A DNA stretch of 64,000 nucleotides from an uncultured Gemmatimonadales bacterium (GCA_963851265.1 CAWKNZ010000002.1:1696001-1760000); one strand, 5' to 3'. Counted from the stretch's first letter, positions 1-64,000 are shown. Translations and numbers: made by a program. Notes: a model not told the origin generated them from the sequence alone.

Positions 1-986
1 AGCAGCAAGGCCGTCCCGAAGAAGCCGAGCAAGAGCGTCCAGACGCCGGCTAGCAGCCCGAACACCAGCCGCCCGACGCCGCCGGCCTGCGCGGCCAGCC
101 ACGCGCCGAGCGCGAAGAGCAGCGCGAGCGCCACCCCCGCGAGCCCGTACGCGACCACGTGCGACGGCGGCCCGGCCGGTTCGGGCGGCCGGGCCGCCGC
201 GAACACGGTGCGCTCCGACGCGACGAGCGGGACGAGGCGGCCGTCGGCGGCGCGCAGGCGCACGCCGCGCAGGTGCGCCATCATCCGCACCGGGAGAAAG
301 CTCTCCTCCCACGCGTCGAGCGGCGCGTCCGCGGGGCGGCCCAGCGCGAGCTGGATGCCCGTGTACGTGGCCGGGTCGCCGTCGGTGAGGCGACGGGTGT
401 GCGAGCGGTACGTGGTCCCGGTCGGCGCCCCGACGAGCGCGGCGCGGAGCGCACCGCCTAACGTGCGGTCGAGCAGGTCGCGCACGCGCGTCGAGCAGTT
501 GTCGCGGTAGTAGTCGTACCGGTAGTAGCGGTTCTCCTCGCGCGAGTTCCAGTCCACGAAGTCGCGCACCGCCGCGCGCTGCGCGGCGGTCAGCGCGAGT
601 TCCTGCAGGTACACGCTCCGATTCTCGACGTGCGCGTAGTGCTCGGCGAGCGCCGGCGCGTCGAACCCCTGCATCCAGTAGCGCGTGTCGCCTGTGAGGA
701 AGCGCCACACGAAATTGGGCTGGTTGAAGTCGAACATGCCCCAGTTGTACGCCACCGCCGACCCGGTCCGCCCGTCGCGCACGACGAGCGCGTTGTGCCC
801 GAACCGCTCCCACACGTCGTCGCCCGCGCCGATGGTCATGAGCGAGACCGTGAGACTGTCGCCGGGTGTGGCGCCGGGCACAGGCGTTGGGCCGCCCGCG
901 ACGCCCTGCGCCCGCGCCGGCGTCGCACGCAGCGCGGCAAGCACGACGCCCAGCACGAGCACGAAGCGCGCGAACGCGGCGGACAT
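1..986 (-). CDS. DUF4105 / Lnb-like (lipoprotein N-acyltransferase-type) membrane protein, 3' end truncated by the window edge
   Basis: Not in the ORF track; translated manually from ATG 986: MSAAFARFVLVLGVV...SLMTIGAGDDVWERFGHNALVV...YNWGMFDF...YYRYDYYRDNCSTRVRD. FGH and DNC motifs, then C-terminal hydrophobic helices. Confidence 0.8.
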   Translation of the reverse strand, partial: MSAAFARFVLVLGVVLAALRATPARAQGVAGGPTPVPGATPGDSLTVSLMTIGAGDDVWERFGHNALVVRDGRTGSAVAYNWGMFDFNQPNFVWRFLTGDTRYWMQGFDAPALAEHYAHVENRSVYLQELALTAAQRAAVRDFVDWNSREENRYYRYDYYRDNCSTRVRDLLDRTLGGALRAALVGAPTGTTYRSHTRRLTDGDPATYTGIQLALGRPADAPLDAWEESFLPVRMMAHLRGVRLRAADGRLVPLVASERTVFAAARPPEPAGPPSHVVAYGLAGVALALLFALGAWLAAQAGGVGRLVFGLLAGVWTLLLGFFGTALL

Positions 987-997
987 GCGGCCCGCTC

Positions 998-1885
998 TCA
1001 CAGCCCGCGCCGCCGCTCGAATACGTAGCTCGCGCCCGCGCGCACCGAACCGTAGCGCGCGCCGTTGAACAGGTCGTACCGCGCTTCGGCACTCACTCGG
1101 AACGCGCGCACCGGCGTGAAGTCGAACCCGACCGCACCGGTCGGCCCGAGCGCGACGCCGTCGAGGGCGCGCGCCACGAACGTGCCGTCGAGCGTGGGAT
1201 TCTGGACGTTGATGAAGTGTGTCGCCGCGCCAACCGCGAGCCACGGGCGCAGCACCCCGGCCGGCCCACCGCGCCCGAACACGCGCGGTCGCCAGCGCGT
1301 CTCGACGCTGAGCGCGACGTCCGAGCTGCGCACCTGCCCCACGTGGACCGAATCGCCGGGCGGTCCGTGGGGCGCCTGCGCGCTGATGGCGCGGCCGAGC
1401 GCCTGCGCGAAGCCGTCCACCGCGTCATCGGTGTACCGCGACGTCCAGTACGTCGCGCCGAACACGACGCGGAAGTCGGGGACGATCTCGCCGTAGTCCG
1501 CGTGGAGCGCGTAGAGGGCGGTGCTGCGCACCTGGTCGGGGAACGCCACGCCGCCGTCGAGTCCGATTTCGCGCAGCCGCAACCGGTCGAGGTTGAGCTG
1601 GTGGAAGATCGAGCGCTCGGGCCGGCGCGCGACGTCGGCGAGTTGGCTCGCGACGACGCTGTCGCGCGCGACCGAGTCGGGCAGCGCGCGGTGGAGCGAG
1701 TCGAACCGCGCGGCGGAATCGCGCGCGCTGCGTTGGGCGGTGTCGGCGCGCGCCGTGTCGCGCGTCGCGGGCCGCTGGGCGCGGGCCGCGCGTGGTCCGA
1801 ACGTGCCGCACGCCAGCAGCACGCCCGCGGTCGCCCACGCACCCGTCGGGCGCCGCAGGCCGACGCGCTCACTCCACCGGATCAA
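998..1885 (-). CDS. Hypothetical exported protein, outer-membrane beta-barrel-like
   Basis: Signal-peptide-like N-terminus, alternating beta-strand pattern and C-terminal ...RAGASYVF. The TTG start at 1885 overlapping the spoIID stop is inferred. Confidence 0.6.
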   Translation of the reverse strand: MIRWSERVGLRRPTGAWATAGVLLACGTFGPRAARAQRPATRDTARADTAQRSARDSAARFDSLHRALPDSVARDSVVASQLADVARRPERSIFHQLNLDRLRLREIGLDGGVAFPDQVRSTALYALHADYGEIVPDFRVVFGATYWTSRYTDDAVDGFAQALGRAISAQAPHGPPGDSVHVGQVRSSDVALSVETRWRPRVFGRGGPAGVLRPWLAVGAATHFINVQNPTLDGTFVARALDGVALGPTGAVGFDFTPVRAFRVSAEARYDLFNGARYGSVRAGASYVFERRRGL

Positions 1886-3299
1886 CGGTCGTTCCCGGGT
1901 AGTAGGTCTGGAGGATGTGGCGGAAGTCCTGCCCGGCGCGCGCCCGCCCGATCGCGCCCCACTGGCACATGCCGACGCCGTGCCCGTTGCCACGGCCGCG
2001 GAGCACGAGGCGCAACACGCGCCCGTCGTCGCCGCCGGTGGCCGCGGCGGAAAAATAGGTACTGGGGAGGATGTCGGTCCCCACGCCGGTCTCGCGGCCG
2101 AGGGGGCTGCGCATGGCGAACCGGATCGCGTTGCCGCGCAGGACGAAGCGGCCCGCGTCGGTGGTGACCGTCACCGACGCGGTGCGTCCCGACGGCGTCC
2201 GCTCGCCCGCCCGCCACTCGCGCACCGCGCCCAGCGGACCGCCTAACGTCGTGCCCGCGCGTCCGTCCGCCGGTGCCGCGTAGCGCCGCAGGTACCGCGC
2301 GAGCACCTCGTCGAGCGCGTCGGCGTCCCACGACCGCTCCCAGTGCGCGCGCGGGGCGATGTCGCAGTACGCGCGGTCCTCGCCCGGCACCGAGTCGCTC
2401 ACGCGCCGCAGGTACGGCGCGCGCTCGGCGCCCCACACCTCGGAGGGGTCGGCGGTGTTCCCGCCGCACGCCGAGTAGTACGGGGCCGACACGACCGCGC
2501 CCTCGTAGCGCAGCACGAGCCCCGTGGTCGCGAGCAGCGCACGGTCCGCGTTGGGCTGCTCGACGTTGACGCCGCCGTAGAGCTGGTCCTCGGTGGTCGC
2601 GCGCACGTCGTAGGGCGCGGCCGCGCGCGCGACCGCCGCCGACCGCGGCAGGAACTCCGCGATGCGGCTGTAGAGATAGCTGCGCGCGGTGACCGCCTGC
2701 GCTTCGAGCGCGGCATGGTCGCCGGCGCGCTCGGTAGGCAATTCCAGCGGCAGCACGCCGCGCAGGTACTCCTCGCCGCCAAGGCGGTTCACCACGGTCA
2801 CGGCGCCGCTCGCCGGATGCAGCCAGAGCGCGCCGCGGTAGCGGTGGCCGGCGTAGCGCACGAACCCGTCGTCGGCGTTCTCGGGGCGCGCGACGAGCGG
2901 GCCGTCGACCCAGGGGGTCGCTGCGCCCGACGCGCCGCGCGCACGCACCCGTCCGTCGCGCACCTCCACCGTCCACGCACTTCCGCCGGGTGCGTGCGCG
3001 AGCACCCCGCCGTTCGCGTCCGCGAACACCCAGGGCGCGGTCGCGCTCACCTCGGGCGCACGTACGGCGAATGCGACGGCCACGCGCACGACGCGCCCGC
3101 CCGTCGGGACGGCGACGCCGCCGTCGGAAGTCGTCGTGCTCGCGTTCGGGCGCGACGCGCCGCCGGCCTGCGCGCTCCGCGCCGGGTCGCGCGTCGCAGC
3201 CTCGTGCGCGGGCGCCGGTCCCGCGTGACACGCGAGCAGCGCCGCGCCCGCGAGAGCCGCCGCGCCGGCCCCGACGCGCGCGGTGCGCGCCCGGGTCAA
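1869..3299 (-). CDS. SpoIID/LytB domain lipoprotein (lytic transglycosylase-like)
   Basis: EEYLRGVLPLE, ALEAQAVTARSY, DQLYGG, GRGNGHGVGMCQWGA, ILQTYYPG. Lipobox LLAC. TTG start overlaps the rimO stop. Confidence 0.9.
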   Translation of the reverse strand: MTRARTARVGAGAAALAGAALLACHAGPAPAHEAATRDPARSAQAGGASRPNASTTTSDGGVAVPTGGRVVRVAVAFAVRAPEVSATAPWVFADANGGVLAHAPGGSAWTVEVRDGRVRARGASGAATPWVDGPLVARPENADDGFVRYAGHRYRGALWLHPASGAVTVVNRLGGEEYLRGVLPLELPTERAGDHAALEAQAVTARSYLYSRIAEFLPRSAAVARAAAPYDVRATTEDQLYGGVNVEQPNADRALLATTGLVLRYEGAVVSAPYYSACGGNTADPSEVWGAERAPYLRRVSDSVPGEDRAYCDIAPRAHWERSWDADALDEVLARYLRRYAAPADGRAGTTLGGPLGAVREWRAGERTPSGRTASVTVTTDAGRFVLRGNAIRFAMRSPLGRETGVGTDILPSTYFSAAATGGDDGRVLRLVLRGRGNGHGVGMCQWGAIGRARAGQDFRHILQTYYPGTTVDPVE

Positions 3300-4705
3300 C
3301 GGCCGTAGCTGCCGATGGTCGTGGCCGCGCCGACTCCGGAGCCGGCCAGGGGCAGCGCGCGCGGCGCGCGCCGCGGCACCACCGGCAGCACGGGTCCGAC
3401 CGCGGTCGCGTGGAAGTCGTAGTCGTCGACCACCTCGTCGACGACGACCTCGACGAAGCTGCCCGGGACCGCGGGGGTGTCGACCCACGTCACGCCGTCC
3501 ACGTCGTCCGCCTGCCACGGCGCGCGGGCCTGCGCCGGCGCGCCGTCGGCCGCGGCGCGGTCGACGAGCACGGTCGCGCGCGTGCCGATGCGCTCCTCGT
3601 ACCGTTCGGCGGTGATGGCGCGCTGCAGCTCGGTCAGCCGCTCCAGCCGGTCGCGCTTGACCACGTCGGGCACGTCGTCGGCGAGGGCGTACGCGCGCGT
3701 GCCCTCCTGCGGCGAGTAGGCGAAGGCGCCGACGCGGTCGAAGCGCGCCTCTTCCAGAAAGTCGCAGAGCGCGAGGAAATCGGACTCGGTCTCGCCGGGG
3801 AATCCGACGATGCACGTGGTCCGGATCGCGACCCCCGCCACCGCGTCGCGAAACCGCGCGAGCTTCTCGCGCATCGTCCGCTGCCGCTCGGGGCGCCGCA
3901 TCCGCGCGAGTACGGCGTCGCTCGCGTGCTGGATCGGCATGTCGAGGTAGCGCAGCACGCGCGGGTTGGCCGCCACGACCTCCAAGAGGCGCGGCGTGAT
4001 CCCGGTCGGGTACAGGTAGAGGTTGCGGTACCATGCGACGTCCGTCTCGGCCAGCAGCGCCTCGAGCAGGTCGGGAAGCCGCGCCCCGTCGGCGCGGTCG
4101 CGCCCGTAATGCGCCAGGTCCTGCGCGACGAGGTTGATCTCGCGCGCGCCCTGCAACTCCAGCAGCTGCGCCTCGCGTACGACGTCGGCCACCGCGAACG
4201 AGCGGTGCCGCCCGCGCATGAGCGGGATCGCGCAGAACGCGCACCCGTGATCGCACCCCTCGCTGATCTTGAGGTAGCGCACGTGCGGCAGGTCGCCGCC
4301 GTAGAGGCGCACGCCCGGGTGCTCGCTCAGCGCGTCGGGTGAGACGAGCCCGCGAGCCGCGAGCTGCGGCACGAGCTGGTCGACGTCGCTCGCGCCGAGG
4401 AACAGGTCGACCTCGGGCAGCGCCTCGGCCAGCTCCTCGCGGTGGCGCTGCACCATGCAGCCCACCGCCACCACCGCCTGACACGCGCCGTCGACCTTGA
4501 GACGCCCGGCGCCGACGAGCGCGTCGATGCTCTCCTGCTTGGCCGCGTCGATGAAGCCGCACGTGTTGACCAGGATCACCTCGGCCTCGCTCGGGTCGCC
4601 CGTCGGCGTGGCGCCGTGCGCGACGAGCTCGGCGAGGTAGCGCTCCGAGTCGACGGTGTTCTTGTCGCAGCCGAGCGTGAGCAGGGCGACCTTGACGCCT
4701 AACAT
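3296..4705 (-). CDS. rimO: Ribosomal protein S12 methylthiotransferase RimO
   Basis: LGCDKNTVDSE, NTCGFI, radical-SAM motif EGCDHGCAFCAIP, IVGFPGET, C-terminal TRAM domain. Confidence 0.93.
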   Translation of the reverse strand: MLGVKVALLTLGCDKNTVDSERYLAELVAHGATPTGDPSEAEVILVNTCGFIDAAKQESIDALVGAGRLKVDGACQAVVAVGCMVQRHREELAEALPEVDLFLGASDVDQLVPQLAARGLVSPDALSEHPGVRLYGGDLPHVRYLKISEGCDHGCAFCAIPLMRGRHRSFAVADVVREAQLLELQGAREINLVAQDLAHYGRDRADGARLPDLLEALLAETDVAWYRNLYLYPTGITPRLLEVVAANPRVLRYLDMPIQHASDAVLARMRRPERQRTMREKLARFRDAVAGVAIRTTCIVGFPGETESDFLALCDFLEEARFDRVGAFAYSPQEGTRAYALADDVPDVVKRDRLERLTELQRAITAERYEERIGTRATVLVDRAAADGAPAQARAPWQADDVDGVTWVDTPAVPGSFVEVVVDEVVDDYDFHATAVGPVLPVVPRRAPRALPLAGSGVGAATTIGSYGR

Positions 4706-19898: not shown

Positions 19899-19925
19899 TC
19901 TCCGTTAGGCACACTGCGCTCCGCC

Positions 19926-21341
19926 ATGCCCATCGCGACCGTCAACCCGGCCACCCGCGAGGTGGTCCGCACCTTCCCCCCGGACGACGACGCGGCGGTC
20001 GAGCGCGCCCTCGCCGCGGCCTCCGAGACCGCGCGGACGTGGCGCACGGTCCCCGCCGCCGACCGCGCCGCGGTCGTCGCGCGCGCTGGCGACCTGCTCG
20101 ACGCGCGGCGCGACGCGTACGCGCGGCTCATGACGCTCGAGATGGGCAAGCCGATCCGCGCGGCGCGCGACGAGGCGGCGAAGTGTGCGCTCGCCTGCCG
20201 GTTCTACGCGGAGCACGGGCCGCGTTTCGTCGCGCCCGAGACGCTCTTCGACGACGCCTCGGGCAGCGGGCAGGTGCGCTACCAACCGTTAGGCGTCGTG
20301 CTCGCCGTGATGCCGTGGAACTTCCCGTTCTGGCAGGTCATCCGCTTCGCCGCGCCGGCGCTCGTCGCCGGGAATGTCGGGCTGCTGAAGCACGCGTCCA
20401 ACGTGCCGCAGTGCGCGCTCGCCATCGCCGAGCTGTTCCGCGACGCGGGCGCGCCGGCCGGGGCCTTTCAGACCCTGCTGGTCGACGCGCCGCGCGTGGG
20501 GCCGATCATCGCCGACCCGCGCGTCGCGGCCGTGACGCTCACAGGGAGCGAGGGCGCGGGCGCGTCCGTCGGCGCGGCCGCGGGCGCCGCGCTCAAGAAG
20601 ACCGTGCTCGAACTGGGCGGCAGCGACGCGTTCGTCGTCCTCGCCGATGCCGACGTCGAGGCGGCCGCCCGCGCCGCGGTCACCGCGCGGACGATCAACA
20701 ACGGGCAGTCGTGCATCGCGGCCAAACGGTTCGTCGTCGAACAACCGGTGTACGACGCGTTCGTCGACCGGCTCGCGGCGGGAATGCGCGCGCTCCGCGT
20801 AGGAGACCCGTTCGACGAGGAGACGGCGGTCGGTCCGCTCGCCACGGCGCAGATCCGCGACGACATCGCCGACCAGGTCCGCCGGACGCTCGACGCCGGC
20901 GCGCGTCTGGTCTGCGGCGGGGCGGCGCCCGACGGCGCCGCACTCGCCGGCGGGTTCTACTATCTGCCAACCGTGCTCGCCGACGTGCCGCGAGCCTCCC
21001 CGGCGGCCCAGGAAGAGACGTTCGGGCCCGTGGCGGCCGTCCTCCGCGCCGCCGACGCGGACGAGGCGCTCACCATCGCCAACGACACTCCGTACGGCCT
21101 GGGCGCGGCGGTCTGGACGCAAGATCCGGCCGCGGCCGAGCGGTTCGCCGCGGGGCTCGAGGCCGGGTCGGTGTTCGTGAACGGTATGGTCGTCTCGGAC
21201 CCGCGGCTCCCGTTCGGCGGGATCAAACGCTCGGGCTACGGACGCGAGTTGAGCGCGGTCGGACTGCGCGAGTTCACGAACGTGAAGACCGTGCGCGTCG
21301 CCCAAGGTGGCGCCGGCGCGCCGGGCGGCGCGACCGAGTAG
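19926..21341 (+). CDS. NAD(P)-dependent succinate-semialdehyde dehydrogenase (Sad/GabD1-type)
   Basis: VMPWNFPFWQV, LKHASNVP, LELGGSD, NNGQSCIAAKRF, EETFGP. Confidence 0.88.
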   Translation: MPIATVNPATREVVRTFPPDDDAAVERALAAASETARTWRTVPAADRAAVVARAGDLLDARRDAYARLMTLEMGKPIRAARDEAAKCALACRFYAEHGPRFVAPETLFDDASGSGQVRYQPLGVVLAVMPWNFPFWQVIRFAAPALVAGNVGLLKHASNVPQCALAIAELFRDAGAPAGAFQTLLVDAPRVGPIIADPRVAAVTLTGSEGAGASVGAAAGAALKKTVLELGGSDAFVVLADADVEAAARAAVTARTINNGQSCIAAKRFVVEQPVYDAFVDRLAAGMRALRVGDPFDEETAVGPLATAQIRDDIADQVRRTLDAGARLVCGGAAPDGAALAGGFYYLPTVLADVPRASPAAQEETFGPVAAVLRAADADEALTIANDTPYGLGAAVWTQDPAAAERFAAGLEAGSVFVNGMVVSDPRLPFGGIKRSGYGRELSAVGLREFTNVKTVRVAQGGAGAPGGATE

Positions 21342-37211: not shown

Positions 37212-37882
37212 CCGGCGATGACCGCGGCGACGCGCGAGGCCGGATCATCGACGTGAGTGTGCGCGTCGCGGCGGGCACGCCCGAGTGGCCGGGCGACACG
37301 CCCTACGCCTGCGGCTGGACCGCGCGGCTCGCGGACGGCGCGACCGTCAATCTGTCGGCGATCACGCTCAGCCCGCACGTGGGCACGCACGCCGACGCGC
37401 CGCTGCACGTGCGCGACGGCTGGCCGGGATCCGACGCGCTGCCGCCCCACGCGTTCCTCGGGCCCGCGCTCGTCCTCGACCTCGCGATGTTGGACGGCGA
37501 ACTGTCGTACGACGCAGTCGCCGCGGCCGCGCGTACGGCCCGCACCGACCTCGGGGGCACCGAACGCCTGCTGCTGAGCACGGGGCGCACGATCGCGAGC
37601 GGCCGATTCCCCGCCGCGTGGCCGTGGCTCGCGCCCGCGTGCGTCGCCCGCCTGTGCGCCGACGGGCTCGTGCTGTTAGGCGTCGACGCGCCGAGCGTGG
37701 ACGGCCGCGAGAGCAAGGATCTGGCGACGCACCACGCGCTGTTCGGCGCGGGCGCGTGGAACTTGGAGAACCTCGACCTGCGTGCCGTCGCGCCCGGACG
37801 TTACGAGTTGGTCGCGCTGCCGCTCTCGCTCGACGGGCTGGACGCGGCGCCCGCGCGCGCCGTGCTCCGCCCCTTGAGCTGA
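37208..37882 (+). CDS. kynB: Cyclase family / kynurenine formamidase
   Basis: WPGDTP, HVGTHADAPLH, GVDAPSVD, LENL, APARAVL; follows kynA. Confidence 0.82.
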   Translation: MTGDDRGDARGRIIDVSVRVAAGTPEWPGDTPYACGWTARLADGATVNLSAITLSPHVGTHADAPLHVRDGWPGSDALPPHAFLGPALVLDLAMLDGELSYDAVAAAARTARTDLGGTERLLLSTGRTIASGRFPAAWPWLAPACVARLCADGLVLLGVDAPSVDGRESKDLATHHALFGAGAWNLENLDLRAVAPGRYELVALPLSLDGLDAAPARAVLRPLS

Positions 37883-41556: not shown

Positions 41557-42693
41557 TCAGAACTTCAGATCCGCGGCCTCCGCGAATTCGCGCATCTTCG
41601 CCTGCTGCTCCTCCGTGAGCCCCTCGGGCACCGTCACGCGCAACTCGACGATCATGTCGCCGCGCTGCTCGCCCTTGACGATCCCCTGCCCCCGCACCCG
41701 GAGCCGCCGTCCACTCGACGTTCCGGCCGGAATCCGCAGCGCGACCTTGGTCCCGTCGAGCGTCCGCACCTGCATCTTCGAACCCAGGGTTGCCTGCGCC
41801 AGGTTCACCGGAATCGTCGCGATGACGTCCAGCCCCTCGCGCCGGAACAACCGGTCCGGCTGAACCTGGAAGGTGATCACGAGGTCGCCCGGCGGCGCGC
41901 CCTGCTCGCCCCGCCCGCCCTGCCCCTTGAGCCGCACGCGTGAGCCCGAGTCCGCGCCCGCCGGCACCGTCACGTTCACCTGCTTGCGCGTGCGCACCTG
42001 CCCCGCCCCGCTGCACGTCGGACAGCGCTCGCTCGGGATCTGCCCGCGCCCCAGGCACATCGGGCACGGACGGTTCACGGCGAACCCGCCCTGGCCGAAC
42101 GAGATCGTGCCGCGCCCGCTGCACTCCGGGCACGTCTTCAGCGTCGCGCCCGGCGCCGCGCCGCTGCCGTGGCACGTCTCGCACTCCTCGCTCACCTCGA
42201 GTTCGACGGGCAGCTTCCCGCCTAACGCCGCCGTGCGGAACGGCACCTCGACGGTGATCTCGACCGTCTGACCGGGCTCGGGGCCGCGCCTCGCGCCGGC
42301 GCCGCCCGCGCGGTTGGCGCCGAAGATCGAACTGAAGATGTCGCCGAAGCCGCCCATCCCCCCGACGTCGACGTTCGAGAAGTCGAACTGCGCGCCGCCC
42401 GGGAATCCCTGCGCACCGCCGGGGCGGGCGCCCGCCGGACCGCGGCCGCCCGCGCCGAAGCCGCCGAACGCGCCCAGCCGGCGCATCTCGTCGTACTGCT
42501 TCCGCTTATCCGCGTCCCCGATGACGTTGTACGCCTCCGAAATCTCCTTGAAGCGCTCCGCGGCCTTCGGGTCGTTCTTGTTCGCGTCCGGGTGGTGCTG
42601 CTTCGCCAGCCGGCGGTACTGCTTTTTTATGTCAGCCTGCTCGGCCGTGGGCGACACGCCGAGCACCGCGTAGTAGTCGCTGTTCTGCGCCAT
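41557..42693 (-). CDS. dnaJ: Chaperone DnaJ
   Basis: J domain with HPD, G/F region, four CxxCxGxG repeats. Confidence 0.95.
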   Translation of the reverse strand: MAQNSDYYAVLGVSPTAEQADIKKQYRRLAKQHHPDANKNDPKAAERFKEISEAYNVIGDADKRKQYDEMRRLGAFGGFGAGGRGPAGARPGGAQGFPGGAQFDFSNVDVGGMGGFGDIFSSIFGANRAGGAGARRGPEPGQTVEITVEVPFRTAALGGKLPVELEVSEECETCHGSGAAPGATLKTCPECSGRGTISFGQGGFAVNRPCPMCLGRGQIPSERCPTCSGAGQVRTRKQVNVTVPAGADSGSRVRLKGQGGRGEQGAPPGDLVITFQVQPDRLFRREGLDVIATIPVNLAQATLGSKMQVRTLDGTKVALRIPAGTSSGRRLRVRGQGIVKGEQRGDMIVELRVTVPEGLTEEQQAKMREFAEAADLKF

Positions 42694-46181: not shown

Positions 46182-46883
46182 TCAGGCCGTGCCGGACGCG
46201 GGATTCCGCCGCAACACGGCGCCGTAGCGCCGCGCGTAGATCCAGAGCGAGTAGAGCGTGAGCGCGACCGCGATCGCCATCGTCGCCGCGCCCACGACGC
46301 CGTTGAACAGCGCGAACGCGTGCCACCACGCGCCCGCCGCCCACGTGCGCCCCTCCGCGAGTGAGGCGGCGAAGAACCAGAAGTAGGCGGCGCCCACCCA
46401 CGTCGCCTGGAACCCCGTCTTCCACTTTGCCGGGCCGATCGCGGCGATCACGACGCCGCGTCGCGCGGCGACCTGGCGGAACGCGGTCATCAGCGCCTCG
46501 CGGCCGAGCACGACGAGCACGACCCACCAGGGGAGCGTCACGAGGCCTAACGGCGTCACGAACGGCAGCGGCGGGCGCGCCGCGGCGTCGGCGGGAATGA
46601 CGAGCGACCCGACGCGGCCCATGAGCCAGTACATCGGGACGAACGTCGCGACGAGCAGCAGCTTGTCGGCGAGCGGGTCGAGCAGGCGGCCGAGGTCGGT
46701 GACCAGGTTGCGCGTGCGCGCGAGGTGGCCGTCCCAGTAGTCGGTGACGGCGGCCGCGACGTAAAGCAGGAACGCGGCGAGCCGCGTGCCCGGCGTCGGT
46801 GCGAACGGCAACCACGCGATGAGCGGCGCGACCGCGATGCGGGCGACGGTGATCGCGTTCGGGAGGTTCACGGAGCGGGGCAC
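46182..46883 (-). CDS. pgsA: CDP-alcohol phosphatidyltransferase (PgsA-like)
   Basis: NLPNAITVARI, TDYWDGHLAR, GRLLDPLADK. Confidence 0.85.
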   Translation of the reverse strand: MPRSVNLPNAITVARIAVAPLIAWLPFAPTPGTRLAAFLLYVAAAVTDYWDGHLARTRNLVTDLGRLLDPLADKLLLVATFVPMYWLMGRVGSLVIPADAAARPPLPFVTPLGLVTLPWWVVLVVLGREALMTAFRQVAARRGVVIAAIGPAKWKTGFQATWVGAAYFWFFAASLAEGRTWAAGAWWHAFALFNGVVGAATMAIAVALTLYSLWIYARRYGAVLRRNPASGTA

Positions 46884-47620: not shown

Positions 47621-47644
47621 GGGCGTTCTCCGGATGGGTGTGCG

Positions 47645-48223
47645 TTAGGAGAAGAGCCGGTCGATCTCGTCTTCGGCGCCGGCGAGCAGGTCTGTGAGGA
47701 AGGCCGGCAGCGGCGCGGCCGGCGGGCCGGCGGGCGTCGCCCCGGCCGGCGGTGCGGGGTTGGGCGTGGCGTTGGGCGCGGCTCCGGGCGCCACGTTAGG
47801 CCCCGGCGAGCGTTCGAACACGCGCTCGAAGCGCGCGGCGAGCGTGTCGACGACGCCGCGCAGCTTGAGGCGCACGAGGCCGAGCGTGGTCCGGTTGTCG
47901 AAGAGGACGACGAGGATCACGCGGCGCGCGACGTCGGCCAGGTACATCGACTCGCGCTCGCCCTGGTGGAAGAGCGTCGTGAAGTCGCGCTCGCCGATCA
48001 GCCGCGCGAGCTGGTCGTTGGCGCTGAAGTCGGCCGCCGTGAGCGACGCGAACGCGACGGCGTCGAACGCGGGCACCTCGCCCACGGTGGCGACGAGCTG
48101 GCCCGCGCGGTCGACGAGCAGCGCGGAGCGCGCGCCGGTCTCGCGCAGGAAGCTCTGCACGGCCCCGCTGATCGCGTGCGCGTCGTCGTCGGTGAAGGTC
48201 CAGCTAACGGCGCCGGGGGGCAT
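47645..48223 (-). CDS. mglB: MglB roadblock/LC7 protein
   Basis: LLVDRAGQL, FASLTAADF, LFHQGE, TTLGLVRL, C-terminal EDEIDRLFS; adjacent to mglA. Confidence 0.9.
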   Translation of the reverse strand: MPPGAVSWTFTDDDAHAISGAVQSFLRETGARSALLVDRAGQLVATVGEVPAFDAVAFASLTAADFSANDQLARLIGERDFTTLFHQGERESMYLADVARRVILVVLFDNRTTLGLVRLKLRGVVDTLAARFERVFERSPGPNVAPGAAPNATPNPAPPAGATPAGPPAAPLPAFLTDLLAGAEDEIDRLFS

Positions 48224-49296: not shown

Positions 49297-49327
49297 GTGC
49301 GGGGGCGGATAGCGGCCGGAAGGGTCG

Positions 49328-49642: not shown

Positions 49643-49781
49643 GGGGGCAACCTAACGGGGTGAGATTGGTGCGACGCGTGGCGCGATGTCCGCCGCGGCC
49701 GCATCGCGCGTCATGCGGGTCCGGCTGTTCGCGGTGTGCCGAGTCGGGCACGTCTGCTCGCGCACGCCTACCGGAGGAACG

Positions 49782-51737
49782 CTACTCGAGCAATTCGAGG
49801 TCGAGCGCTTCGATGGCGGCGCCGAGCACACGGTCGCGACGCGCGAGCGTCGCGAGCCGCTCTGCACGTACCCCTTCGGCGGTCAGGCGTTGCGGCGCCG
49901 CGCCGCCCTGGGGTGCCGCCGCGCCGTTCGCCCGCAGCACGACCCGCGCCGCCCCAGGGTGGACGTGCCGCACGGCGCCGATCACGTCGTCGTGGGCCGC
50001 GGAGAGCGCCTGCGCGTACGCGTCGTTCGGCTCGATCAGTTCGACGGTGACGACGCCCGCCGCACTCAGCGCGACGGGGCGCGTTGCGGCGAGTGCACTC
50101 GCGACGAGCGGTCGCACGGCCCGCGCCGCGTCGACCACCGCGGACCACCGCGCCGCGAGCGTGACGACGTCGCCATGCGCGTCGGCGGGCATCGGCGCAC
50201 CGTTCGGCAGCGGTGCCGGGTAGCTCGGCGTCTGGGGCGCATGCGCCGCGTCGACCAGCGGCGCCGGCGCGACGCTCCGCGTTGGCGCGCGCACCGCGGG
50301 TCGCTCCAGCACCGCCGTAATCGGCCCGTTGCCGATCGGCCCGTCACTGATCGACGCCTCGCTGATCGGACCGTCGGGGTGGTCCGGCAGCGGCGCCTCG
50401 CGGTGCCACGCGGGTGGACGCGCGTCGTCGACGGCGCTCTCGTACGCGGCGCGAAGGCTCGCCCCCGCAGACGGACGCGTCGTCGCGCGCCCCGCGTCGG
50501 CGGGAGGCGTGCGACCGGCAGGCCGGGGGGGCGCCGACGACGGGCCGGTAACCGGGGTGCGAGCGGGACCACTCCCCAGCGGACCGCCGTCGAGGCCGCG
50601 GAGCACGGTTTCGAGGTCGACCGCGCGGTCGGCGAGTGCGAAGCGCACGAGCAGCGTCTCGAGCAGGAGTTGCTGTTGCCCGCTCTTGCGGATGCGCGGC
50701 TCGGCTTCGACGAGGATCTGCAGCATGCGCACGAGGTCCGACGCGCCGAGGTGGCCCGGGCGGCCCGCGCGCTCGGCCAGCGCCGCGCGCAGGCGTTCCG
50801 AGACGTCGGGCGCGTCGCCCCCGAGCGTGAGGGCGAGGAGCGCGCGCATCGCGTCGCCGAGCCCGGCCACGAACAGCGCGAAGTCGACGCCACCTTCGGC
50901 GAGGCGCGCGACCTGGGCGAACACGTCGCCCGCACGCCGGTCGGCGACGAGGTCGACGACGGCGACGTACTCCTCCTCGGGCACGAGGCCTAACGCCTCG
51001 CGCACGCGCTCCGCCGTGACGCGCGCGTCCGCGCCGAGCGAGAGCACCTGGTCGGTGAGCGAGAGCGCGTCGCGCAGGCCGCCGTCCGCCGCGCGCGCGA
51101 TCGCGCCGAGCGCGTCGGGCTCGAACGGCACGTGCTCGGCGTCGAGCACGGCGGCCAGTCGCGCGCGGATCTCGCCGGGCCCGATGCGCTTGAGGTCGAA
51201 GCGCTGGAGCCGGCTGAGAATCGGCGCGGCCGCCTGCGCGATTTTTTGCGGCTCCGTGGTGCAGAAGACGAACACCACGCGAGGCGGCGGCTCCTCGAGC
51301 ACCTTGAGGAGCGCGTTCCACGCCTCGCGCGTGAGCATGTGGGCCTCGTCCACGATGTAGACCTTGTACCGGCCCTCGCCCGACGGGGCGTACATCGCAC
51401 GCTCGCGCAGGTCGCGCGCGTCGTCCACCGAGCGGTTGGACGCGGCATCGATCTCGACGACGTCGAGCGACGAGGCCCCGCTCCAGATGCGCCGGCAGCT
51501 TTCGCACGCCCCGCACGGCTCGCCGTCGGGGTGCTCGGCCCGGCGCTCACAGTTGAGTGCCATCGCGAGTACGCGCGCGAGCGTCGTCTTGCCCGTCCCG
51601 CGCGGCCCGCACAGGAGGTAGCCGTGCGCGACGCGGCCGCGCGCGATGGCCCCCTTCAACGTGTTCGAGACGTGCGACTGGACGGCGACGTCGGCGAACG
51701 ACTTGGGGCGGTACTTCCGGGCGAGGGCGAGCGACAT
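49782..51737 (-). CDS. dnaX: DNA polymerase III subunit gamma/tau
   Basis: LARKYRP, GPRGTGKTT, EIDAASN, IVDEAHML, LLKVLEEPP. Confidence 0.96.
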   Translation of the reverse strand: MSLALARKYRPKSFADVAVQSHVSNTLKGAIARGRVAHGYLLCGPRGTGKTTLARVLAMALNCERRAEHPDGEPCGACESCRRIWSGASSLDVVEIDAASNRSVDDARDLRERAMYAPSGEGRYKVYIVDEAHMLTREAWNALLKVLEEPPPRVVFVFCTTEPQKIAQAAAPILSRLQRFDLKRIGPGEIRARLAAVLDAEHVPFEPDALGAIARAADGGLRDALSLTDQVLSLGADARVTAERVREALGLVPEEEYVAVVDLVADRRAGDVFAQVARLAEGGVDFALFVAGLGDAMRALLALTLGGDAPDVSERLRAALAERAGRPGHLGASDLVRMLQILVEAEPRIRKSGQQQLLLETLLVRFALADRAVDLETVLRGLDGGPLGSGPARTPVTGPSSAPPRPAGRTPPADAGRATTRPSAGASLRAAYESAVDDARPPAWHREAPLPDHPDGPISEASISDGPIGNGPITAVLERPAVRAPTRSVAPAPLVDAAHAPQTPSYPAPLPNGAPMPADAHGDVVTLAARWSAVVDAARAVRPLVASALAATRPVALSAAGVVTVELIEPNDAYAQALSAAHDDVIGAVRHVHPGAARVVLRANGAAAPQGGAAPQRLTAEGVRAERLATLARRDRVLGAAIEALDLELLE

Positions 51738-51908: not shown

Positions 51909-52910
51909 ATGCGTTGGTTCACGCCGCCCGTCGTCAGATCCCGGCCCGCGTACGCGGTCTCGCGCGCGCTCGCACGCGCGCGCACCGTCGCGCCGGCCAC
52001 GCTCGTGCTGTTCGCGGCCGACGCATGCGACAATCGCGTCGCGGACGCTCCCGGCGTCGGCGGCGTGATCGACCGCCCCGTCGCGGTGCTCGCCGCCTCG
52101 TCGACCGACGTGACGACGACCGAGTTGTACCTCGTCAGCGAGAACGGTGGGACGTCGATCCGGGTCCCCACTTTCACCGGGGCCAAGTGGCAGGTGCGCT
52201 GGTCGGGCGACGGTCGCCGGCTGGCGCTCACCGGGAACACGCTCGACTCGCGCTCCGACCGCGTCGCCTTCACCTCGGACGTGTGGGTAATGAACGCCGA
52301 CGGATCGGGGCTGCGGCAGATCACGCGCGATGGGGTGTCCGGATCGGCCACGTGGCTCGCCGACGGGCGGCTGGTCTACGTCTACGCAGCGCCAAACCAG
52401 GGATTGCAGTGGTTCGCGGTGCCGGCGACGGGCGGGCCAGCCCTACCCCTCACGCTGCGCCAGGGCGCGCCCGTCTACACGCCCGATTGGTCGCGGACGG
52501 CTCCGCAGATGAGCTTCAACGACGACACCACGATCTTCACCGCGGCGGTCGACGGCTCCGCCGAGCGCGCGATCGCCGGCGGGACGCTTCCGCGGTGGTC
52601 GCCGTCGGGCGACCGGATTGCCTACCTGGGACGCCAGGACGGCGGGCCGAAGCTGTTCGTGATCTCGCCCGTCGCGCGGGCGCGTCCCGTGGTCGTCGTG
52701 CCCGACCTCACGGCGTTCGCGGGCGGCTTCACGTGGTCGCCGGACGGCACCCGCATCCTCTGGATCCGGAACACGGCGGCCGGGACGGAGGCGGTGGTCA
52801 GCCAGGCGAACGGATCCGGCGCGCCGACCACGTTCGTCCAGCGCGGGCCTAACGTGACCGCGTACGACGTCGACGTCGACTGGCGTCCGACACCGCTTCC
52901 GGTTCCGTAA
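51909..52910 (+). CDS. TolB-like (PD40 repeat) beta-propeller protein
   Basis: Repeated WSGDG / WSPSG / WSPDG, VWVMNADGSGLRQIT; start uncertain. Confidence 0.75.
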   Translation: MRWFTPPVVRSRPAYAVSRALARARTVAPATLVLFAADACDNRVADAPGVGGVIDRPVAVLAASSTDVTTTELYLVSENGGTSIRVPTFTGAKWQVRWSGDGRRLALTGNTLDSRSDRVAFTSDVWVMNADGSGLRQITRDGVSGSATWLADGRLVYVYAAPNQGLQWFAVPATGGPALPLTLRQGAPVYTPDWSRTAPQMSFNDDTTIFTAAVDGSAERAIAGGTLPRWSPSGDRIAYLGRQDGGPKLFVISPVARARPVVVVPDLTAFAGGFTWSPDGTRILWIRNTAAGTEAVVSQANGSGAPTTFVQRGPNVTAYDVDVDWRPTPLPVP

Positions 52911-53420: not shown

Positions 53421-53522
53421 GTACTCCAGGTCTGACGGAGCAACGCAAGACACCACACGGCGCTGCTACCTGCGGGGTCCTGACGCGGTTAGCGGGCTTA
53501 CGCCCTCCGGGACCTGGAGCAT
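53421..53522 (-). ncRNA. ffs: Signal recognition particle RNA (4.5S, small bacterial SRP)
   Basis: Minus strand reads CTCCAGGTC...AACCGCGTCAGGACCCCGCAGGTAGCAGCG...GACCTGGAG: closing stem plus the domain-IV TCAGG...AGCAG motif; upstream of dnaX. Confidence 0.85.
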
Positions 53523-55137: not shown

Positions 55138-55986
55138 TCAGTCCTCCAGCACCGCGCGCTGGATGCGGCGCACGTGCCGCAACTCGAACACCTGCGCTAC
55201 CTCGCCGCCGAGAATAAAAACGATCGACGCATAATACACCCAGAAGACGATGATCACGAACGCGGCGAGCGTGCCCGTATACAGGGACCCCGGGTTGAAC
55301 GACCGCACGTACGCGGAGAACACCATCTTCGCGACCTCCAGGAGCGCGCCGGCGAACGCCGCCGCGAGGAGTGCCGTCTTCCAGCGAATGCCTCGGTTAG
55401 GCAACGTCTTGTACAGACCGAAGAACATCGCCGTGATGAACGAGAACGCGACGAGGCGCCCGACCGAGTATTCGAGGCCGCCCATCACGTCGCCGCGCAC
55501 GCCCATGTTGATGAGCACGCGCACGCCCGACGACGTCGCGAGGCTGAGGTACGCCGACAGCGCGGTGTAGGCGACGACGAGCACCGTCGAGACCACGGTC
55601 ACCTGGACGTCGAACAGCTTGCCGGCCACGATCCCGCGCTCCTGGTCGATGTCGAACACCTCGGCCAGCACCGAGCGCAGTGACCCGAAGAGCCGCGTCG
55701 AGAACCAGATGAACGACACCGCCGACACGAGCCCGACGCGTCCTCGCGTGCGGATCGCGTCGGCGATCACCGAGCGGAGCAGGTCGGTGCCCGTTCCGAG
55801 GCCGCCGGGGAGCAACCGGTCGAGCAGCGCCGACACCTGCGTCGTGGACGCGTCGGCGGTCTGCCCGAGCACGTACGCGATGCCGGTCACGAGCAGGAGC
55901 GCGAACGGGACCACGGCCAGGAGGATGTTGAACGCGATCCCGCCGGCGAGGAAGAAGATGTCGTCGTCGCCGGAGTTGTCCCACAC
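55138..55986 (-). CDS. YihY/virulence factor BrkB family membrane protein
   Basis: AGGIAF..LL...P, LYKTLPN, YTGTLA, WVYY...FILGGE; the true start is probably upstream. Confidence 0.85.
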   Translation of the reverse strand: MWDNSGDDDIFFLAGGIAFNILLAVVPFALLLVTGIAYVLGQTADASTTQVSALLDRLLPGGLGTGTDLLRSVIADAIRTRGRVGLVSAVSFIWFSTRLFGSLRSVLAEVFDIDQERGIVAGKLFDVQVTVVSTVLVVAYTALSAYLSLATSSGVRVLINMGVRGDVMGGLEYSVGRLVAFSFITAMFFGLYKTLPNRGIRWKTALLAAAFAGALLEVAKMVFSAYVRSFNPGSLYTGTLAAFVIIVFWVYYASIVFILGGEVAQVFELRHVRRIQRAVLED

Positions 55987-60341: not shown

Positions 60342-61718
60342 TCAGACGCGACGCTTGGGGTCGGACGCCGGGAGCTGGGCGAACTCCTCGCGCGCCTGCT
60401 CGAATCCCGGCCGTCCGATCATGCCGTAGGTGAAGTGCTTGCCGAGCTCCACGCCCGGCTGATTGAACGCGTCGATGCCGTAGAACTCGCCCGAATACGC
60501 GGTCGCGGCTTCGAGCAGCATGATGAGCCCGCCCACGTGGTGCGCGTCGATGGTGTCGAGCGTGATCGTCATGTTCGGCCGGCCGCGGGCGGCGAGCGCG
60601 CCGGCCGTCGCGCGGCGCTCGACGTCGAGCAGCTCGCCGAGCGTGTGCCCGCCGAGGTAGGCGAGGTCGGGCACGTCCTGGTACAGCGCGGGGATCCGGC
60701 CCCGGTCGGTGCGTCCGTTGACGGCGACGAAGGTCACCGTCTTGTCGGCCGGGCCCTCCATGAACAGCTGCACCTGCGCGTGCTGGTCGGTGGTGCCGAG
60801 CGCGGGCACGGCGGTCGGGCCGACGTGCGTGCCGTCGGGGCGCACCTTGCCTAACGATTCGTCCCACAGCTGGACGAACCACGCGGCCATGTCGCGGAGC
60901 GGGTCGGCGTAGGGCATGAGGACCTGCACCGGCTTGCCGTGGGCGCTCGCGGCGAGGAACTGCAGCGCGGCGTAGACGCCGCCGGGGTTCCGGGCGAGCT
61001 CGGGGGTGTCGCAGCGGGCGCGCATGTCGGCCGCGCCGGCGAGCAGTCCCGCGACGTCGACGCCGAGGAGCGCGGCGGGGAGCAGCCCGACGGGGGTGAG
61101 CACGGAGAACCGCCCCCCGACGTTGGGCGGGATGTCGAGCGCGGTCAGCCCTTCGCTGTTCGCGATCGGCCGGAGCGACCCCTTGGCGGGGTCGGTGATG
61201 AAGACGAGCTGCTCCTTGGCGCGGTCGCCGAGCGCGGCGTCGAGCGCCTCGCGGATGAGGAGGTACTGCGCCATCGTCTCGGCCGTGCCGCCCGACTTGG
61301 AGACCACGAGCACCACGGTGCGCGCGAGGTCGAGGCGCTGGATCGTGGCCGCGATCGTGTCGGGGTCGACGTTGTCGAGCACGTGCAGGCGCGGGTACCC
61401 GTCGCGCTCGGCGTCGGAGAGCGTGTTCCACGCCGGCGGCCGGAGCGCGGTCCGGAGCGCGATCGGGCCCAGCGCCGATCCTCCGATGCCTAACAGCAGG
61501 AGGTCGGTGTAGCGGCCCCGGGCGCGTTCGGCGAAGGCGGTCGTCTGCGCGAGGAGCGCGGTGTCGTCGGGCAGGTCGAGGAACCCCAGCTCGCCGCGGC
61601 CGCGCTTGTCGGCGACGGCGACGTGCGCGACGCGGAAGCGGCCGGTGATCTCCGTCCATTCGGCGTCGGTGACGGCGCCGGGGAGGAACATGTTCGTGTA
61701 GTCGAGCGAGATCGTCAT
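60342..61718 (-). CDS. pgi: Glucose-6-phosphate isomerase
   Basis: GIGGSALG, SKSGGTAET, VGGRFSVL, QLWDESLGK, DQHAQVQL, FNQPGVELGK. Confidence 0.95.
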   Translation of the reverse strand: MTISLDYTNMFLPGAVTDAEWTEITGRFRVAHVAVADKRGRGELGFLDLPDDTALLAQTTAFAERARGRYTDLLLLGIGGSALGPIALRTALRPPAWNTLSDAERDGYPRLHVLDNVDPDTIAATIQRLDLARTVVLVVSKSGGTAETMAQYLLIREALDAALGDRAKEQLVFITDPAKGSLRPIANSEGLTALDIPPNVGGRFSVLTPVGLLPAALLGVDVAGLLAGAADMRARCDTPELARNPGGVYAALQFLAASAHGKPVQVLMPYADPLRDMAAWFVQLWDESLGKVRPDGTHVGPTAVPALGTTDQHAQVQLFMEGPADKTVTFVAVNGRTDRGRIPALYQDVPDLAYLGGHTLGELLDVERRATAGALAARGRPNMTITLDTIDAHHVGGLIMLLEAATAYSGEFYGIDAFNQPGVELGKHFTYGMIGRPGFEQAREEFAQLPASDPKRRV

Positions 61719-61752
61719 GGGCCGACTCGGGGGCGTGGGGAGTTGGGGTGCC

Positions 61753-62541
61753 TCACACGTCGACCTCGAGGCCGTCGTACGCCGGGCGCACGTCGGGCGG
61801 CAGGTCGGCCTCGAGACTTGCGTGCGAGGTGTGGTGCGTGAGGTGCGTGAGGTACGTGCGGCCGGCGCCGACGCGCGCGGCCTCGGCGACCGCCTCGTCG
61901 ATGCTCAGGTGCGTGGGGTGCGGCCGGTGCAGAAACAGCCCGTTGATCACGAGCACGCGCACGCCGCGCAGGATCTCGAGCGCCTCGTCGGGGAGTCGCT
62001 TGGCGTCGGTCACGTAGCCTAACGGGCCGATCCGGTAGCCGAAGACGCGCGCGAAGCCGTGGGGGACGGCGAACGGCGTGACCGGGACGCCCGCGACGTC
62101 GCGCGTCACCCCCGCCTCGAGGATCTCGAGGTGCCCCTCGGGCTTGAAGGTGCCCGGGAGCGGCTTCATCGCGTCGTCGAAGATGTACGGAAACTTGCGC
62201 ACGAGCCCCGCCGCCGTCTCGGCAGAGGCGTACGCCGGGACGGCGCGGCCGGTCGCCGCGCTGAACGCGCGAAGGTCGTCGATGCCGTGCGTGTGGTCGG
62301 CGTGGTCGTGCGTGTACAGCACCGCGTCCACCGCGCCGACGTCGGCGTCCACGAGCTGCAGGCGCAGCTCGGGCGGGGTGTCGACGAGGATGCGGCGCCC
62401 CTCGTCGGTCTCGACGAGCGCGCCGACGCGGGTGCGGCGGTCGCGCGACCCCGGCGCGCGCGCCGACCGGCACACCGCGCAGCCGCACCCGATCTGCGGG
62501 ATCCCGAAGCTCGTCCCCGTGCCGAGGAACCGGAGCCGCAC
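61753..62541 (-). CDS. MBL-fold metallo-hydrolase (PhnP-like)
   Basis: FLGTGTS.G.P..GC.C.VC, THDHADHTHGIDDLR, YLTHLTH. Confidence 0.88.
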   Translation of the reverse strand: MRLRFLGTGTSFGIPQIGCGCAVCRSARAPGSRDRRTRVGALVETDEGRRILVDTPPELRLQLVDADVGAVDAVLYTHDHADHTHGIDDLRAFSAATGRAVPAYASAETAAGLVRKFPYIFDDAMKPLPGTFKPEGHLEILEAGVTRDVAGVPVTPFAVPHGFARVFGYRIGPLGYVTDAKRLPDEALEILRGVRVLVINGLFLHRPHPTHLSIDEAVAEAARVGAGRTYLTHLTHHTSHASLEADLPPDVRPAYDGLEVDV

Positions 62542-62561
62542 GCGCCGGGTCGTCCCGGCCG

Positions 62562-64000
62562 TTAGGCGGGCGCGCCGGTCGCGTCGGCCGGCACGGTCTC
62601 GACCTTCAGCGTGTTCGTCGTCCCGGGCGTGTCGAACGGCACGCCCGCGGTGACGACCACGCGGTCGCCCGGGTTGGCGAGCTCGGACGCGACCGCGATC
62701 CCGAGCCCGAGGTCGACCATCGCCTCGTACGTCGTGACGTGCGGTACCACCTGCGGCACCACGCCCCAGACGAGCGCGAGCTGCCGCGCCGTGCGCGGCT
62801 GGTCGGTGAGCGCGAGGATGGGAACCGGCGGCCGGTGCGCCGACACGATGCGCCCCGTGAAGCCGCTCTTCGAGAAGACGATCACGAGCGGCGCGGCGAG
62901 CTGCCGCGCGGCCGCGACGGTCGCGGCCGCGATCGCCTCCTCGGTCGTCACGAACAGCCCGCGCGCGCGGCGCTCGTCGCGCAGTCCGGCGCCGATCACG
63001 GGGTGCGTCTCGATCTCCTGGATGATGCGCCGCATGGCCTGGACGGCGAGCTGCGGGTACGCACCCGCCGCGGTCTCGGCCGAAAGCATGATCGCGTCGG
63101 TGCCGTCGAGGATCGCGTTGGCCACGTCACTCGCCTCGGCGCGCGTGGGGCGCGGGTGCTCGACCATCGACTCGAGCATCTGCGTGGCCGTGATCACCGG
63201 CCGGCCGAGGCGCTGAGCGAGCGCGATGATCTGCTTCTGCGCCAGCGGCACGCGCTCGAAGGGGAGCTCGACCCCGAGGTCGCCGCGGGCGACCATCACC
63301 GAATCGGACGCGCGCAGGATCTCGTCGATGTTGTCGAGCGCCTGGTCCTTCTCGATCTTCGCGCAGATGAGCGTGCCCTTGGGCACCATCGCGCGCAGCT
63401 CCTCGACGTCGGCCGCGCGCCGCACGAAGCTCAGCGCCAGGTACTCGACTTCCTGCTCCACCGCGAACACCACGTCCGCGCGATCCTTCTCGGTGATGGA
63501 CGGCGCCGACACCGACACCCCGGGGAGGTTCATCCCCTTGTTGCTCTTGATCGGTCCGCCGTGCACCACGCGCACGCCGACGCGGCGCCCCTGGACGTCG
63601 ACCACGACGAGCTCGATGAGGCCGTCGTCGACGAGCACGCGGTCGCCGGCACGGACGTCGTTGGCGAGCGCCTCGTAGGTGATCGGGATCTCGTGCCGCG
63701 CGAGGTCGTGCTCCTCACTTTCGGGGACGAGCGTGATGCTCTGCCCGGGCTCGACCTGGATGGCGCTGGCGAGCGCGCCGATGCGGATGCGGGGGCCCTG
63801 GAGGTCGCCGAGGACGGCGACGTGGCGGCCCAACTCCGCGGCAACCTCGCGCACGATGCGGATGCGCTCGGCGTGCTGCTCGTGCGTGCCGTGCGAGAAG
63901 TTGATGCGTGCCACGTTGAGGCCCGCCTCGATGATCCCGCGAATGGATTCGCGCGAGGTGGTGGCGGGGCCGAGCGTACCGACGATCTTGGTGCGCGGTG
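62562..64000 (-). CDS. pyk: Pyruvate kinase, 5' end beyond the window
   Basis: RTKIVGTLGP, ARINFSHG, DLQGP, MVARGDLGVE, ATQMLESM, MLSAETA. Confidence 0.96.
   Translation of the reverse strand, partial: PRTKIVGTLGPATTSRESIRGIIEAGLNVARINFSHGTHEQHAERIRIVREVAAELGRHVAVLGDLQGPRIRIGALASAIQVEPGQSITLVPESEEHDLARHEIPITYEALANDVRAGDRVLVDDGLIELVVVDVQGRRVGVRVVHGGPIKSNKGMNLPGVSVSAPSITEKDRADVVFAVEQEVEYLALSFVRRAADVEELRAMVPKGTLICAKIEKDQALDNIDEILRASDSVMVARGDLGVELPFERVPLAQKQIIALAQRLGRPVITATQMLESMVEHPRPTRAEASDVANAILDGTDAIMLSAETAAGAYPQLAVQAMRRIIQEIETHPVIGAGLRDERRARGLFVTTEEAIAAATVAAARQLAAPLVIVFSKSGFTGRIVSAHRPPVPILALTDQPRTARQLALVWGVVPQVVPHVTTYEAMVDLGLGIAVASELANPGDRVVVTAGVPFDTPGTTNTLKVETVPADATGAPA

Follow-up and report, generated by a model that had tools for sequence, protein, structure and literature searches.

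Among the short DNA words that bacterial genomes repeat in great numbers, HIP1 (highly iterated palindrome 1) of the cyanobacteria is a hyper-abundant word of unknown function written into genes, whose palindromic form is linked to cognate methylases, and the DNA uptake sequences (DUS) of the Neisseriaceae and the USS, or uptake signal sequences, of the Pasteurellaceae are words of 9-12 bases. Uptake-type self tags have been established in only two proteobacterial families; DUS and USS, together DUES, are short and non-palindromic, exist in hundreds to thousands of copies in both orientations, stand both in spacers and, in frames compatible with the codons, inside genes, with some inverted pairs in hairpins, are evenly spread, lineage-specific and common to related genera, and are accompanied by competence genes, ComP and the predicted ComN/PpdA being minor pilins (PMC2397512, PMC3630211, PMC2346458, 10.1101/2025.10.24.684340, PMC12616744). 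The present work deals with GTTAGGC (GCCTAAC on the opposite strand), a word that recurs in a stretch of 64,000 nucleotides, the whole of the DNA first analysed and hereafter the window (G000:C2:1696001-1760000), from G000, an uncultured Gemmatimonadaceae assembly of 4.60 Mb, 73% GC and 12 contigs, 94% complete. The closest named relatives of the G000 DnaJ locus are uncultured Gemmatimonadaceae metagenome-assembled genomes (MAGs). It is tentatively proposed, as a reading to which we give somewhat less than an even chance, that (C)GTTAGGC is an uptake-sequence-like self tag which accumulates by molecular drive through a putative reader.

The original prediction, made from the window alone, had listed 20 exact copies, and all of them were found at the positions given, 8 on the plus strand and 12 on the minus strand, together with two near matches at 47644 (CGTTAGGA) and 49650 (ACCTAACG). 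In 100 shuffles with dinucleotides preserved, the mean was 2.0 copies and the maximum 6, none of the shuffles reaching 20, so that the rough expectation of about 6 copies offered at that time was too generous. Throughout G000 the word has 1762 copies (885 on the plus strand and 877 on the minus strand), with an observed to expected ratio of 11 under an order-1 Markov model and of 18 under an order-2 model, which places it first among the 6122 7-mers seen at least 300 times; under an order-3 model the sole 7-mer ranked higher is TTAGGCA, an overlap of GTTAGGC itself. The core is sharp, as 1925 occurrences of TTAGG include 1848 of GTTAGG and these in turn the 1762 of GTTAGGC, and the base immediately 5' is specified too, C standing there in 79% of the copies and T in 14%.

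The enrichment is independent of the reading frame. Gene calls for G000 were home-made (an open reading frame, ORF, plus a rule on GC at third codon positions) and comprise 2610 genes, covering about 76% of the genome. Under a null model in which the amino-acid sequence is fixed and each codon is drawn independently, a codon-aware check of the kind recommended in the original prediction, 61.7 copies are expected in the called coding sequences and 1073 were observed. The four stop-free frames contribute 764, 202, 70 and 37 copies against expectations of 27.5, 22.4, 9.5 and 2.3, respectively, each being 7-28 times more frequent than codon usage would predict. In terms of the synonymous chances used, the word occupies 764 of 8623 Leu-Gly opportunities, 202 of 1304 of the form xxG-CCT-AAC, 70 of 1599 of the form xGC-CTA-ACx and 37 of 3309 of the form GTT-AGG-C. 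Moreover, it overlaps stop codons in both possible ways, as GCC-TAA-C at 92 of 327 TAA stops and as GT-TAG-GC at 61 of 591 TAG stops, and 373 of the 1762 copies (21%) lie in sequence that is non-coding or unclear by local GC phase, compared with 18% of random positions. Since the enrichment embraces the four stop-free frames as well as the two that overlap a stop, the force acts on the DNA and not on codons, whether as selection or as drive, which supports what had been argued from the window. The side effect on codon usage is considerable: 764 of the 1093 TTA codons in G000 genes (70%) lie inside G-TTA-GGC, as do 10 of the 12 in the called genes of the window.

The word is not confined to G000. 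It is also the top word in samples of G001 and G004, two congeners whose orthologous regions are about 79-84% identical to G000, and of G012 (62% GC) and G008 (65% GC), over a GC range of 62-74%. Because it ranks first in MAGs from different assembly pipelines, and because the orthologues encode the same amino acids, its excess is not a sequencing artefact. Among 20 relatives, strong enrichment is seen in all four congeners and in G012 and moderate enrichment in G008, the 14 others being nearly empty. A wider survey covered 151 Gemmatimonadaceae genomes of 77 genera, taking as a measure the ratio of CGTTAGGC to a reversed control, with genomes at a ratio of 2 or more classed as enriched, those at 0.35 or less as depleted and the rest as lying between. 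The family proved bimodal, with 46 enriched genomes, 88 depleted ones (40 genera) and 17 between; four of the genomes counted are unpublished, two of them depleted (G011, G045) and two intermediate (G046, G144), and no conclusion rests on these. A total of 25 genera are wholly enriched, and the density of CGTTAGGC reaches 1.33 copies per kb. In a DnaJ tree obtained by a quick method from 83 rows, several clades contain the enriched loci, and the starred branches force at least four changes. The sharpest contrast is found within the genus g54 of GTDB, where G060 and G160 hold about 4000 copies of CGTTAGGC each and G118 holds 66; in a syntenic stretch of 17-19 kb, 13 copies face none at 74% nucleotide identity. 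No relics of the word were seen in G118 at the sites of G060, although at that identity the direction of change is not indicated. With its 46 enriched genomes set against 88 depleted ones, the family would offer a natural experiment for finding the putative reader, and the contrast within g54 would be the most incisive part of it.

The original prediction had also suggested comparing orthologous sites, and the result differs with distance: conservation holds within the genus and is not seen between genera. Over about 150 kb aligned per congener, the word is kept at 17 of 32 and 20 of 37 sites (53-54%), as against 12 of 296 and 18 of 304 (4-6%) for control G-CT[CG]-GGC sites, and in the window the corresponding figures for the two congeners are 10 of 17 and 10 of 15, in-phase 7-mers with a rare central third base being identical in only 9%. 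Where the word is missing, the orthologue mostly reads CTC-GGC, two changes away. Between genera, by contrast, the positions are independent, the word being kept at 3 of 18 sites in G012 (control, 11 of 112) and at 1 of 15 in G008 (control, 1 of 75). Retention within but not between genera implies that the word is actively kept or regained, while single positions are irrelevant in the long term, and it fits with a force on density and not on position.

Density also varies with divergence inside the genome, being 0.49-0.51 per kb where identity to the congeners is at least 84% and 0.05-0.18 per kb where it is below 78%, in a sample that covers two regions only and includes the longest word-free gap. 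This gap, G000:C1:182876-227962, spans 45,086 bases, for which our own arithmetic gives a Poisson expectation of about 5e-5, and carries mnmG, parA, parB and mnmE. Identity to G001 and G004 amounts to 71-81% inside the gap and to 84-89% in its flanks, and the matching region is not word-free in G001, G004 or G012. In view of this lower identity and of the copies in the relatives, the gap is read as a diverged segment, probably imported from a more distant lineage without the word; exclusion from the origin region was considered as its cause and dropped, as the matching region in those three genomes holds copies. In enriched genomes, the word marks resident as opposed to imported DNA, besides distorting codon usage.

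With regard to orientation, whole-genome strand totals are symmetric in the enriched genomes. Locally, the orientation of the word follows gene strand (rho 0.63) and not GC skew, which is very weak in G000, and with gene strand controlled the sense fraction is equal in plus and minus genes (18 regions, Fisher combined p=0.89), so that there is no replication polarity. Spacing is near-Poisson (coefficient of variation 1.07) with a deficit of gaps shorter than 100 bases (26 against 66 expected), counts per gene show a slight under-dispersion (0.86), and the copies are spread uniformly along the genes, following the Leu-Gly opportunities. The 39 pairs of copies within 150 bases of each other show neither periodicity nor a dimer-like fixed spacing. 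A few intergenic inverted pairs form perfect or near-perfect hairpins (G000:C2:11210-11230, C2:116117-116147 and C7:567606-567639), and these could be terminators or proto-attC sites.

A further property of the word concerns integrons. Its agreement with the integron core (GTTRRRY/RYYYAAC), already pointed out from the window, is real and sharper than was then supposed, since the enriched 8-mer is the R-box of the attC sites of G000 itself and of its relatives, flanking base included. The attC sites of G000 are classical hairpins of 97-121 bases with the ends GCCTAACG...CGTTAGGC, these being the R-boxes, and are found in cassette arrays at G000:C10:188936-203792 (four sites) and G000:C6:1592-1708 (one site); no matching attC model was found in Rfam. 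Identical R-box pairs adjoin intI in four depleted genomes (G005, G006, G007 and G062), G069 has GCCCAAC, and R-box arrays account for many of the few copies present in G015 and G017. By our own arithmetic the chance that a top 7-mer fits GTTRRRY is about 16 in 8192, and it is unlikely that the identity of the enriched 8-mer with the attC R-box of the family is a coincidence. Nearly all of the copies nevertheless lack the attC arrangement: none of the 20 in the window is paired in the attC manner, as had been recognised before, and in the whole genome only 8 pairs occur in minus/plus order 50-150 bases apart, 5 of which fold as attC.

From a word that is enriched irrespective of frame, symmetric between strands, retained within a genus and restricted to certain lineages, we infer a reader, an uptake step and a drive. 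In the mechanism that we consider the most likely, double-stranded (C)GTTAGGC would be read by a putative sequence-specific protein, and an uptake or recombination machinery would prefer the fragments that bear the word. Word-bearing alleles would then spread through the population by transformation, as in the case of DUS in Neisseriaceae and USS in Pasteurellaceae, and the word would accumulate wherever coding tolerates it, that is, by synonymous change, at stop codons and in spacers, the force favouring word density over particular positions. The fall of density with divergence and the lack of copies in the more diverged 45-kb segment also fit this mechanism. The likeness to DUS and USS extends to the short non-palindromic word, its copy number and its two orientations, its presence in genes in codon-compatible frames and in spacers, the inverted pairs in hairpins, the even spread, the lineage-specific occurrence common to related genera and the presence of competence genes. 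As for the latter, G000 has 9 prepilin-type matches and 7 matches to T2SSE ATPases, and ComEC, which is compatible with uptake, was found in 45 of the 46 enriched genomes, the exception being 79% complete. The differences are that GTTAGGC is the same across at least 25 genera, that it belongs to another phylum, and that it coincides with an integron R-box. A comparable word in a widespread soil phylum would show the uptake-tag phenomenon to be more general, and would raise the question of why the tag is an integron recombination box.

Several observations weigh against such a tag. ComEC is present in 139 of the 151 genomes, is equally common without the word and therefore discriminates nothing. 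Homologues of two PilA-like pilins of G000 occur both where the word is enriched and where it is depleted, a minor-pilin cluster lacks conservation even among congeners, none of the three pilin queries gave a phyletic pattern, and no pilin matching ComP or ComN/PpdA was found in G000. The word, at 7-8 bases, is shorter than DUS and USS, and of its 21 one-mismatch neighbours only GTTGGGC is in excess, by a factor of 2. No alternative dialect word was found in samples of 24-80 kb from the depleted genomes G005, G006, G007, G009 and G010. The 45-kb stretch without the word apparently entered the genome or persisted in it. To our knowledge, competence has not been reported for the phylum; a literature search found no paper joining 'Gemmatimonad' with 'uptake sequence', and a search on the bare word returned primers only. 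Finally, the uptake model does not account for the coincidence with the attC R-box, which is the main unexplained fact. Apart from these points, one apparent dialect word in G005 (L121-L124, C1/C2) was rejected, as it is a 15-base tandem repeat, TCAGTTACGC plus 5 bases.

Among the other explanations, two may be placed at the same level, both of them unlikely. According to the first, the copies are bound by a nucleoid-associated or chromosome-organising protein of high abundance and are kept by weak selection per site, a role that had been among the candidates named from the window. The sharpness of the word with its partly specified flanks, the even spread with slight under-dispersion and few close pairs, and the retention of sites within the genus speak for such sites, but there are thousands of them, their positions are not conserved between genera (the 3/18 and 11/112 given above), the 39 close pairs lack periodicity and dimer-like spacing, and the desert in the origin region of G000 is not conserved in G001, G004 and G012; the selection acting on each site would, moreover, be very weak.

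According to the second, an integrase or a related tyrosine recombinase reads the word as a double-stranded R-box, and its spread is tied to integron biology through secondary or attI-like sites, cassette capture or cassette genesis. This account, also improbable in our view, draws its strength from the R-box identity described above, with its paired boxes beside intI and in arrays and the low chance of a GTTRRRY fit. Furthermore, an integron integrase (TIGR02249, E<=1e-40) was found in 98 of the 151 family genomes, and integrons have been reported in Gemmatimonadota (PMC8618304). Nevertheless, the presence of an integrase, for which the original prediction had advised looking, does not explain the enrichment: 32 of the 46 genomes classed as enriched have one, as do 55 of the 88 classed as depleted (Fisher p=0.45). 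In G000 the integrase match lies in two pieces about 2 kb apart (G000:C6:3005-6044, minus strand; model positions 2-265 and 260-313), with an ORF without Pfam match between them, so the gene may be interrupted, and the only intI copy found in G001 is partial and contains a stop. Other tyrosine recombinases were located in G000. Within the window, the copies stand in frame inside conserved genes and lack partners, and more than 99% of all GTTAGGC copies are likewise unpaired, devoid of L-boxes and hairpins, and in frame in housekeeping genes. In addition, IntI reads folded single-stranded attC by structure, and we know of no mechanism by which an integrase would make a word accumulate.

An idea joining the uptake tag to integrons, for which we see only a slim chance, is that the word serves self-recognition in DNA exchange and that its sequence derives from, or co-evolved with, the attC R-box of the family's integrons. 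If this were true, each gene cassette would bear the tag twice, cassette capture would be linked with the uptake or recombination of free DNA, and the word would stand as a third uptake-sequence system, independent of the other two, in a new phylum and with a mechanistic tie to integrons.

A comparably slim chance is given to the word being the target of an adenine methylase with an asymmetric site, with an epigenetic or self-marking role and possibly a methylation-dependent uptake. Enzymes of the Eco57I/MmeI type read asymmetric sites of 6-7 bases, and G000 has an intact one of 1141 aa at G000:C7:582089-585511, with PADLOC matches REase_MTase_IIG and DrmMI-like, followed by an SNF2 helicase (together G000:C7:579717-585511, or L210:6717-12511, minus strand). 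However, homologues of this methylase were found in 144 of the 151 genomes, including all 109 of high quality, whether enriched or depleted, and their identity is not sorted by word status. No methylase of PF00145 (C5) or PF01555 (N4/N6, beta-class) was found in G000, and its only other N6_Mtase loci, HsdM-like matches to PF02384, are frame-broken at contig ends (G000:C7:771474-772495 and C9:923-1858), which may mean pseudogenes or else a repeated element that was wrongly assembled. Sites linked to restriction are, besides, usually avoided and not enriched. The HIP1-like or methylation-linked role once suggested for the word thus finds no backing: GTTAGGC resembles HIP1 as a hyper-abundant short word written into genes, but it is asymmetric, no palindrome, and no methylase specific for it was found, the type IIG-like enzyme being family-wide regardless of the word. 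Reasoning, together with the failure to find a C5 methylase, led to the rejection of a bias due to repair of the very short patch (VSP) type. As a separate observation, the Eco57I-type methylase is unusually conserved for a defence-type gene.

A polar signal, that is, Chi for RecBCD or AddAB or KOPS (FtsK orienting polar sequences) for FtsK, is very improbable and has largely been refuted. GTTAGGC shares with Chi of E. coli the sharpness and the strong over-representation of a short word; unlike Chi or KOPS, it lacks polarity (the p=0.89 obtained in the 18 regions, and symmetric strand totals) and runs against codon usage instead of with it. RecC (PF04257) was not found in G000, and AddAB was not tested. 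The original prediction had argued against Chi and KOPS from the 12:8 strand split of the window copies, and the same conclusion now stands on the polarity test. As a determinant of enrichment, RecC was discarded, since it is rare in the family, with 17 of 151 genomes of which 4 are enriched, and shows no relation to the word.

The weakest candidate, an effect at the level of codons or translation, such as TTA-GGC codon-pair use or a bldA-like control by a rare tRNA, retains next to no probability: 70% of the TTA codons do stand before GGC and G000 has a single tRNA-Leu(UAA) gene, but the frame analysis refutes it, the enrichment not being tied to TTA in the sense frame and extending to antisense CCT-AAC and CTA-AC, to the GTT-AGG frame, to stops and to spacers, with the bases 5' of the codon specified too.

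As regards the individual copies of the window, reading frames were assigned by local GC phase and gene labels were tested against Pfam (E<=1e-5). Sixteen copies, and not the 15 first claimed, were found in the Leu-Gly frame, those at 19904 and 2241 being doubtful; the three CCT-AAC copies and the one over the pyruvate kinase stop were as described. Most of the gene labels stood, namely Lnb_N/DUF4105, rimO-type radical SAM, aldehyde dehydrogenase, protein kinase, FtsX/MacB permease, kynB-like cyclase, DnaJ, CDP-alcohol phosphatidyltransferase, dnaX, PGI, MBL fold (metallo-beta-lactamase) and pyruvate kinase, the exceptions being 'spoIID' and 'kynA', which had no Pfam match.

On the minus strand, G-TTA-GGC is read at 456..462 in the Lnb_N/DUF4105 gene (minus strand), at 2241..2247 in the phase of a minus-strand ORF without Pfam match (the one labelled 'spoIID'), and at 4697..4703, at the start of the rimO-type radical SAM gene (3296-4705, minus strand). 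The copies at 21757..21763 and 22183..22189 belong to one Ser/Thr protein kinase gene (21373-23100, minus strand), and both are retained in G001 and G004, as is that at 42220..42226 in dnaJ. Further minus-strand copies in this frame lie in the CDP-alcohol phosphatidyltransferase (pgsA-like) gene (46545..46551), in dnaX (50988..50994), twice in pgi (60849..60855 and 61488..61494) and in the MBL-fold (Lactamase_B_2) gene (62017..62023). On the plus strand, the copy at 19904..19910 shares its frame with the aldehyde dehydrogenase ORF, precedes the ATG used by 7 codons and may be intergenic, while that at 20288..20294 lies within the aldehyde dehydrogenase gene. At 33793..33799 the MacB/FtsX permease has GCG-TTA-GGC within KALGA, which its paralogue writes with CTC-GGC, as had been noted. 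The ORF 36659-37882 contains two plus-strand copies, one in an N-terminal part without Pfam match (37115..37121) and the other in the cyclase (kynB-like) part (37675..37681), the latter retained in G001 and G004.

The three antisense copies, read as CCT-AAC (Pro-Asn) by the gene concerned, are those at 47795..47801 (plus strand) in a Roadblock/LC7 gene, at 52847..52853 (minus strand) in a PD40-repeat gene (51909-52910, plus strand) and at 55396..55402 (plus strand) in a BrkB-family membrane gene (55138-55986, minus strand), the last being retained in G001 and G004. Finally, the copy at 62561..62567 (plus strand) lies over the TAA stop (GCC-TAA-C) of pyruvate kinase (62562-63914, minus strand) and is retained in the same two congeners. 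The window also contains a ComM/YifB-like Mg-chelatase ATPase (16942-18495) and CinA (43483-44796), both from families named for competence, a recR-ybaB-dnaX cluster (48703-51737), and a bacterial small signal recognition particle RNA on the minus strand (53422-53518, 47.7 bits).

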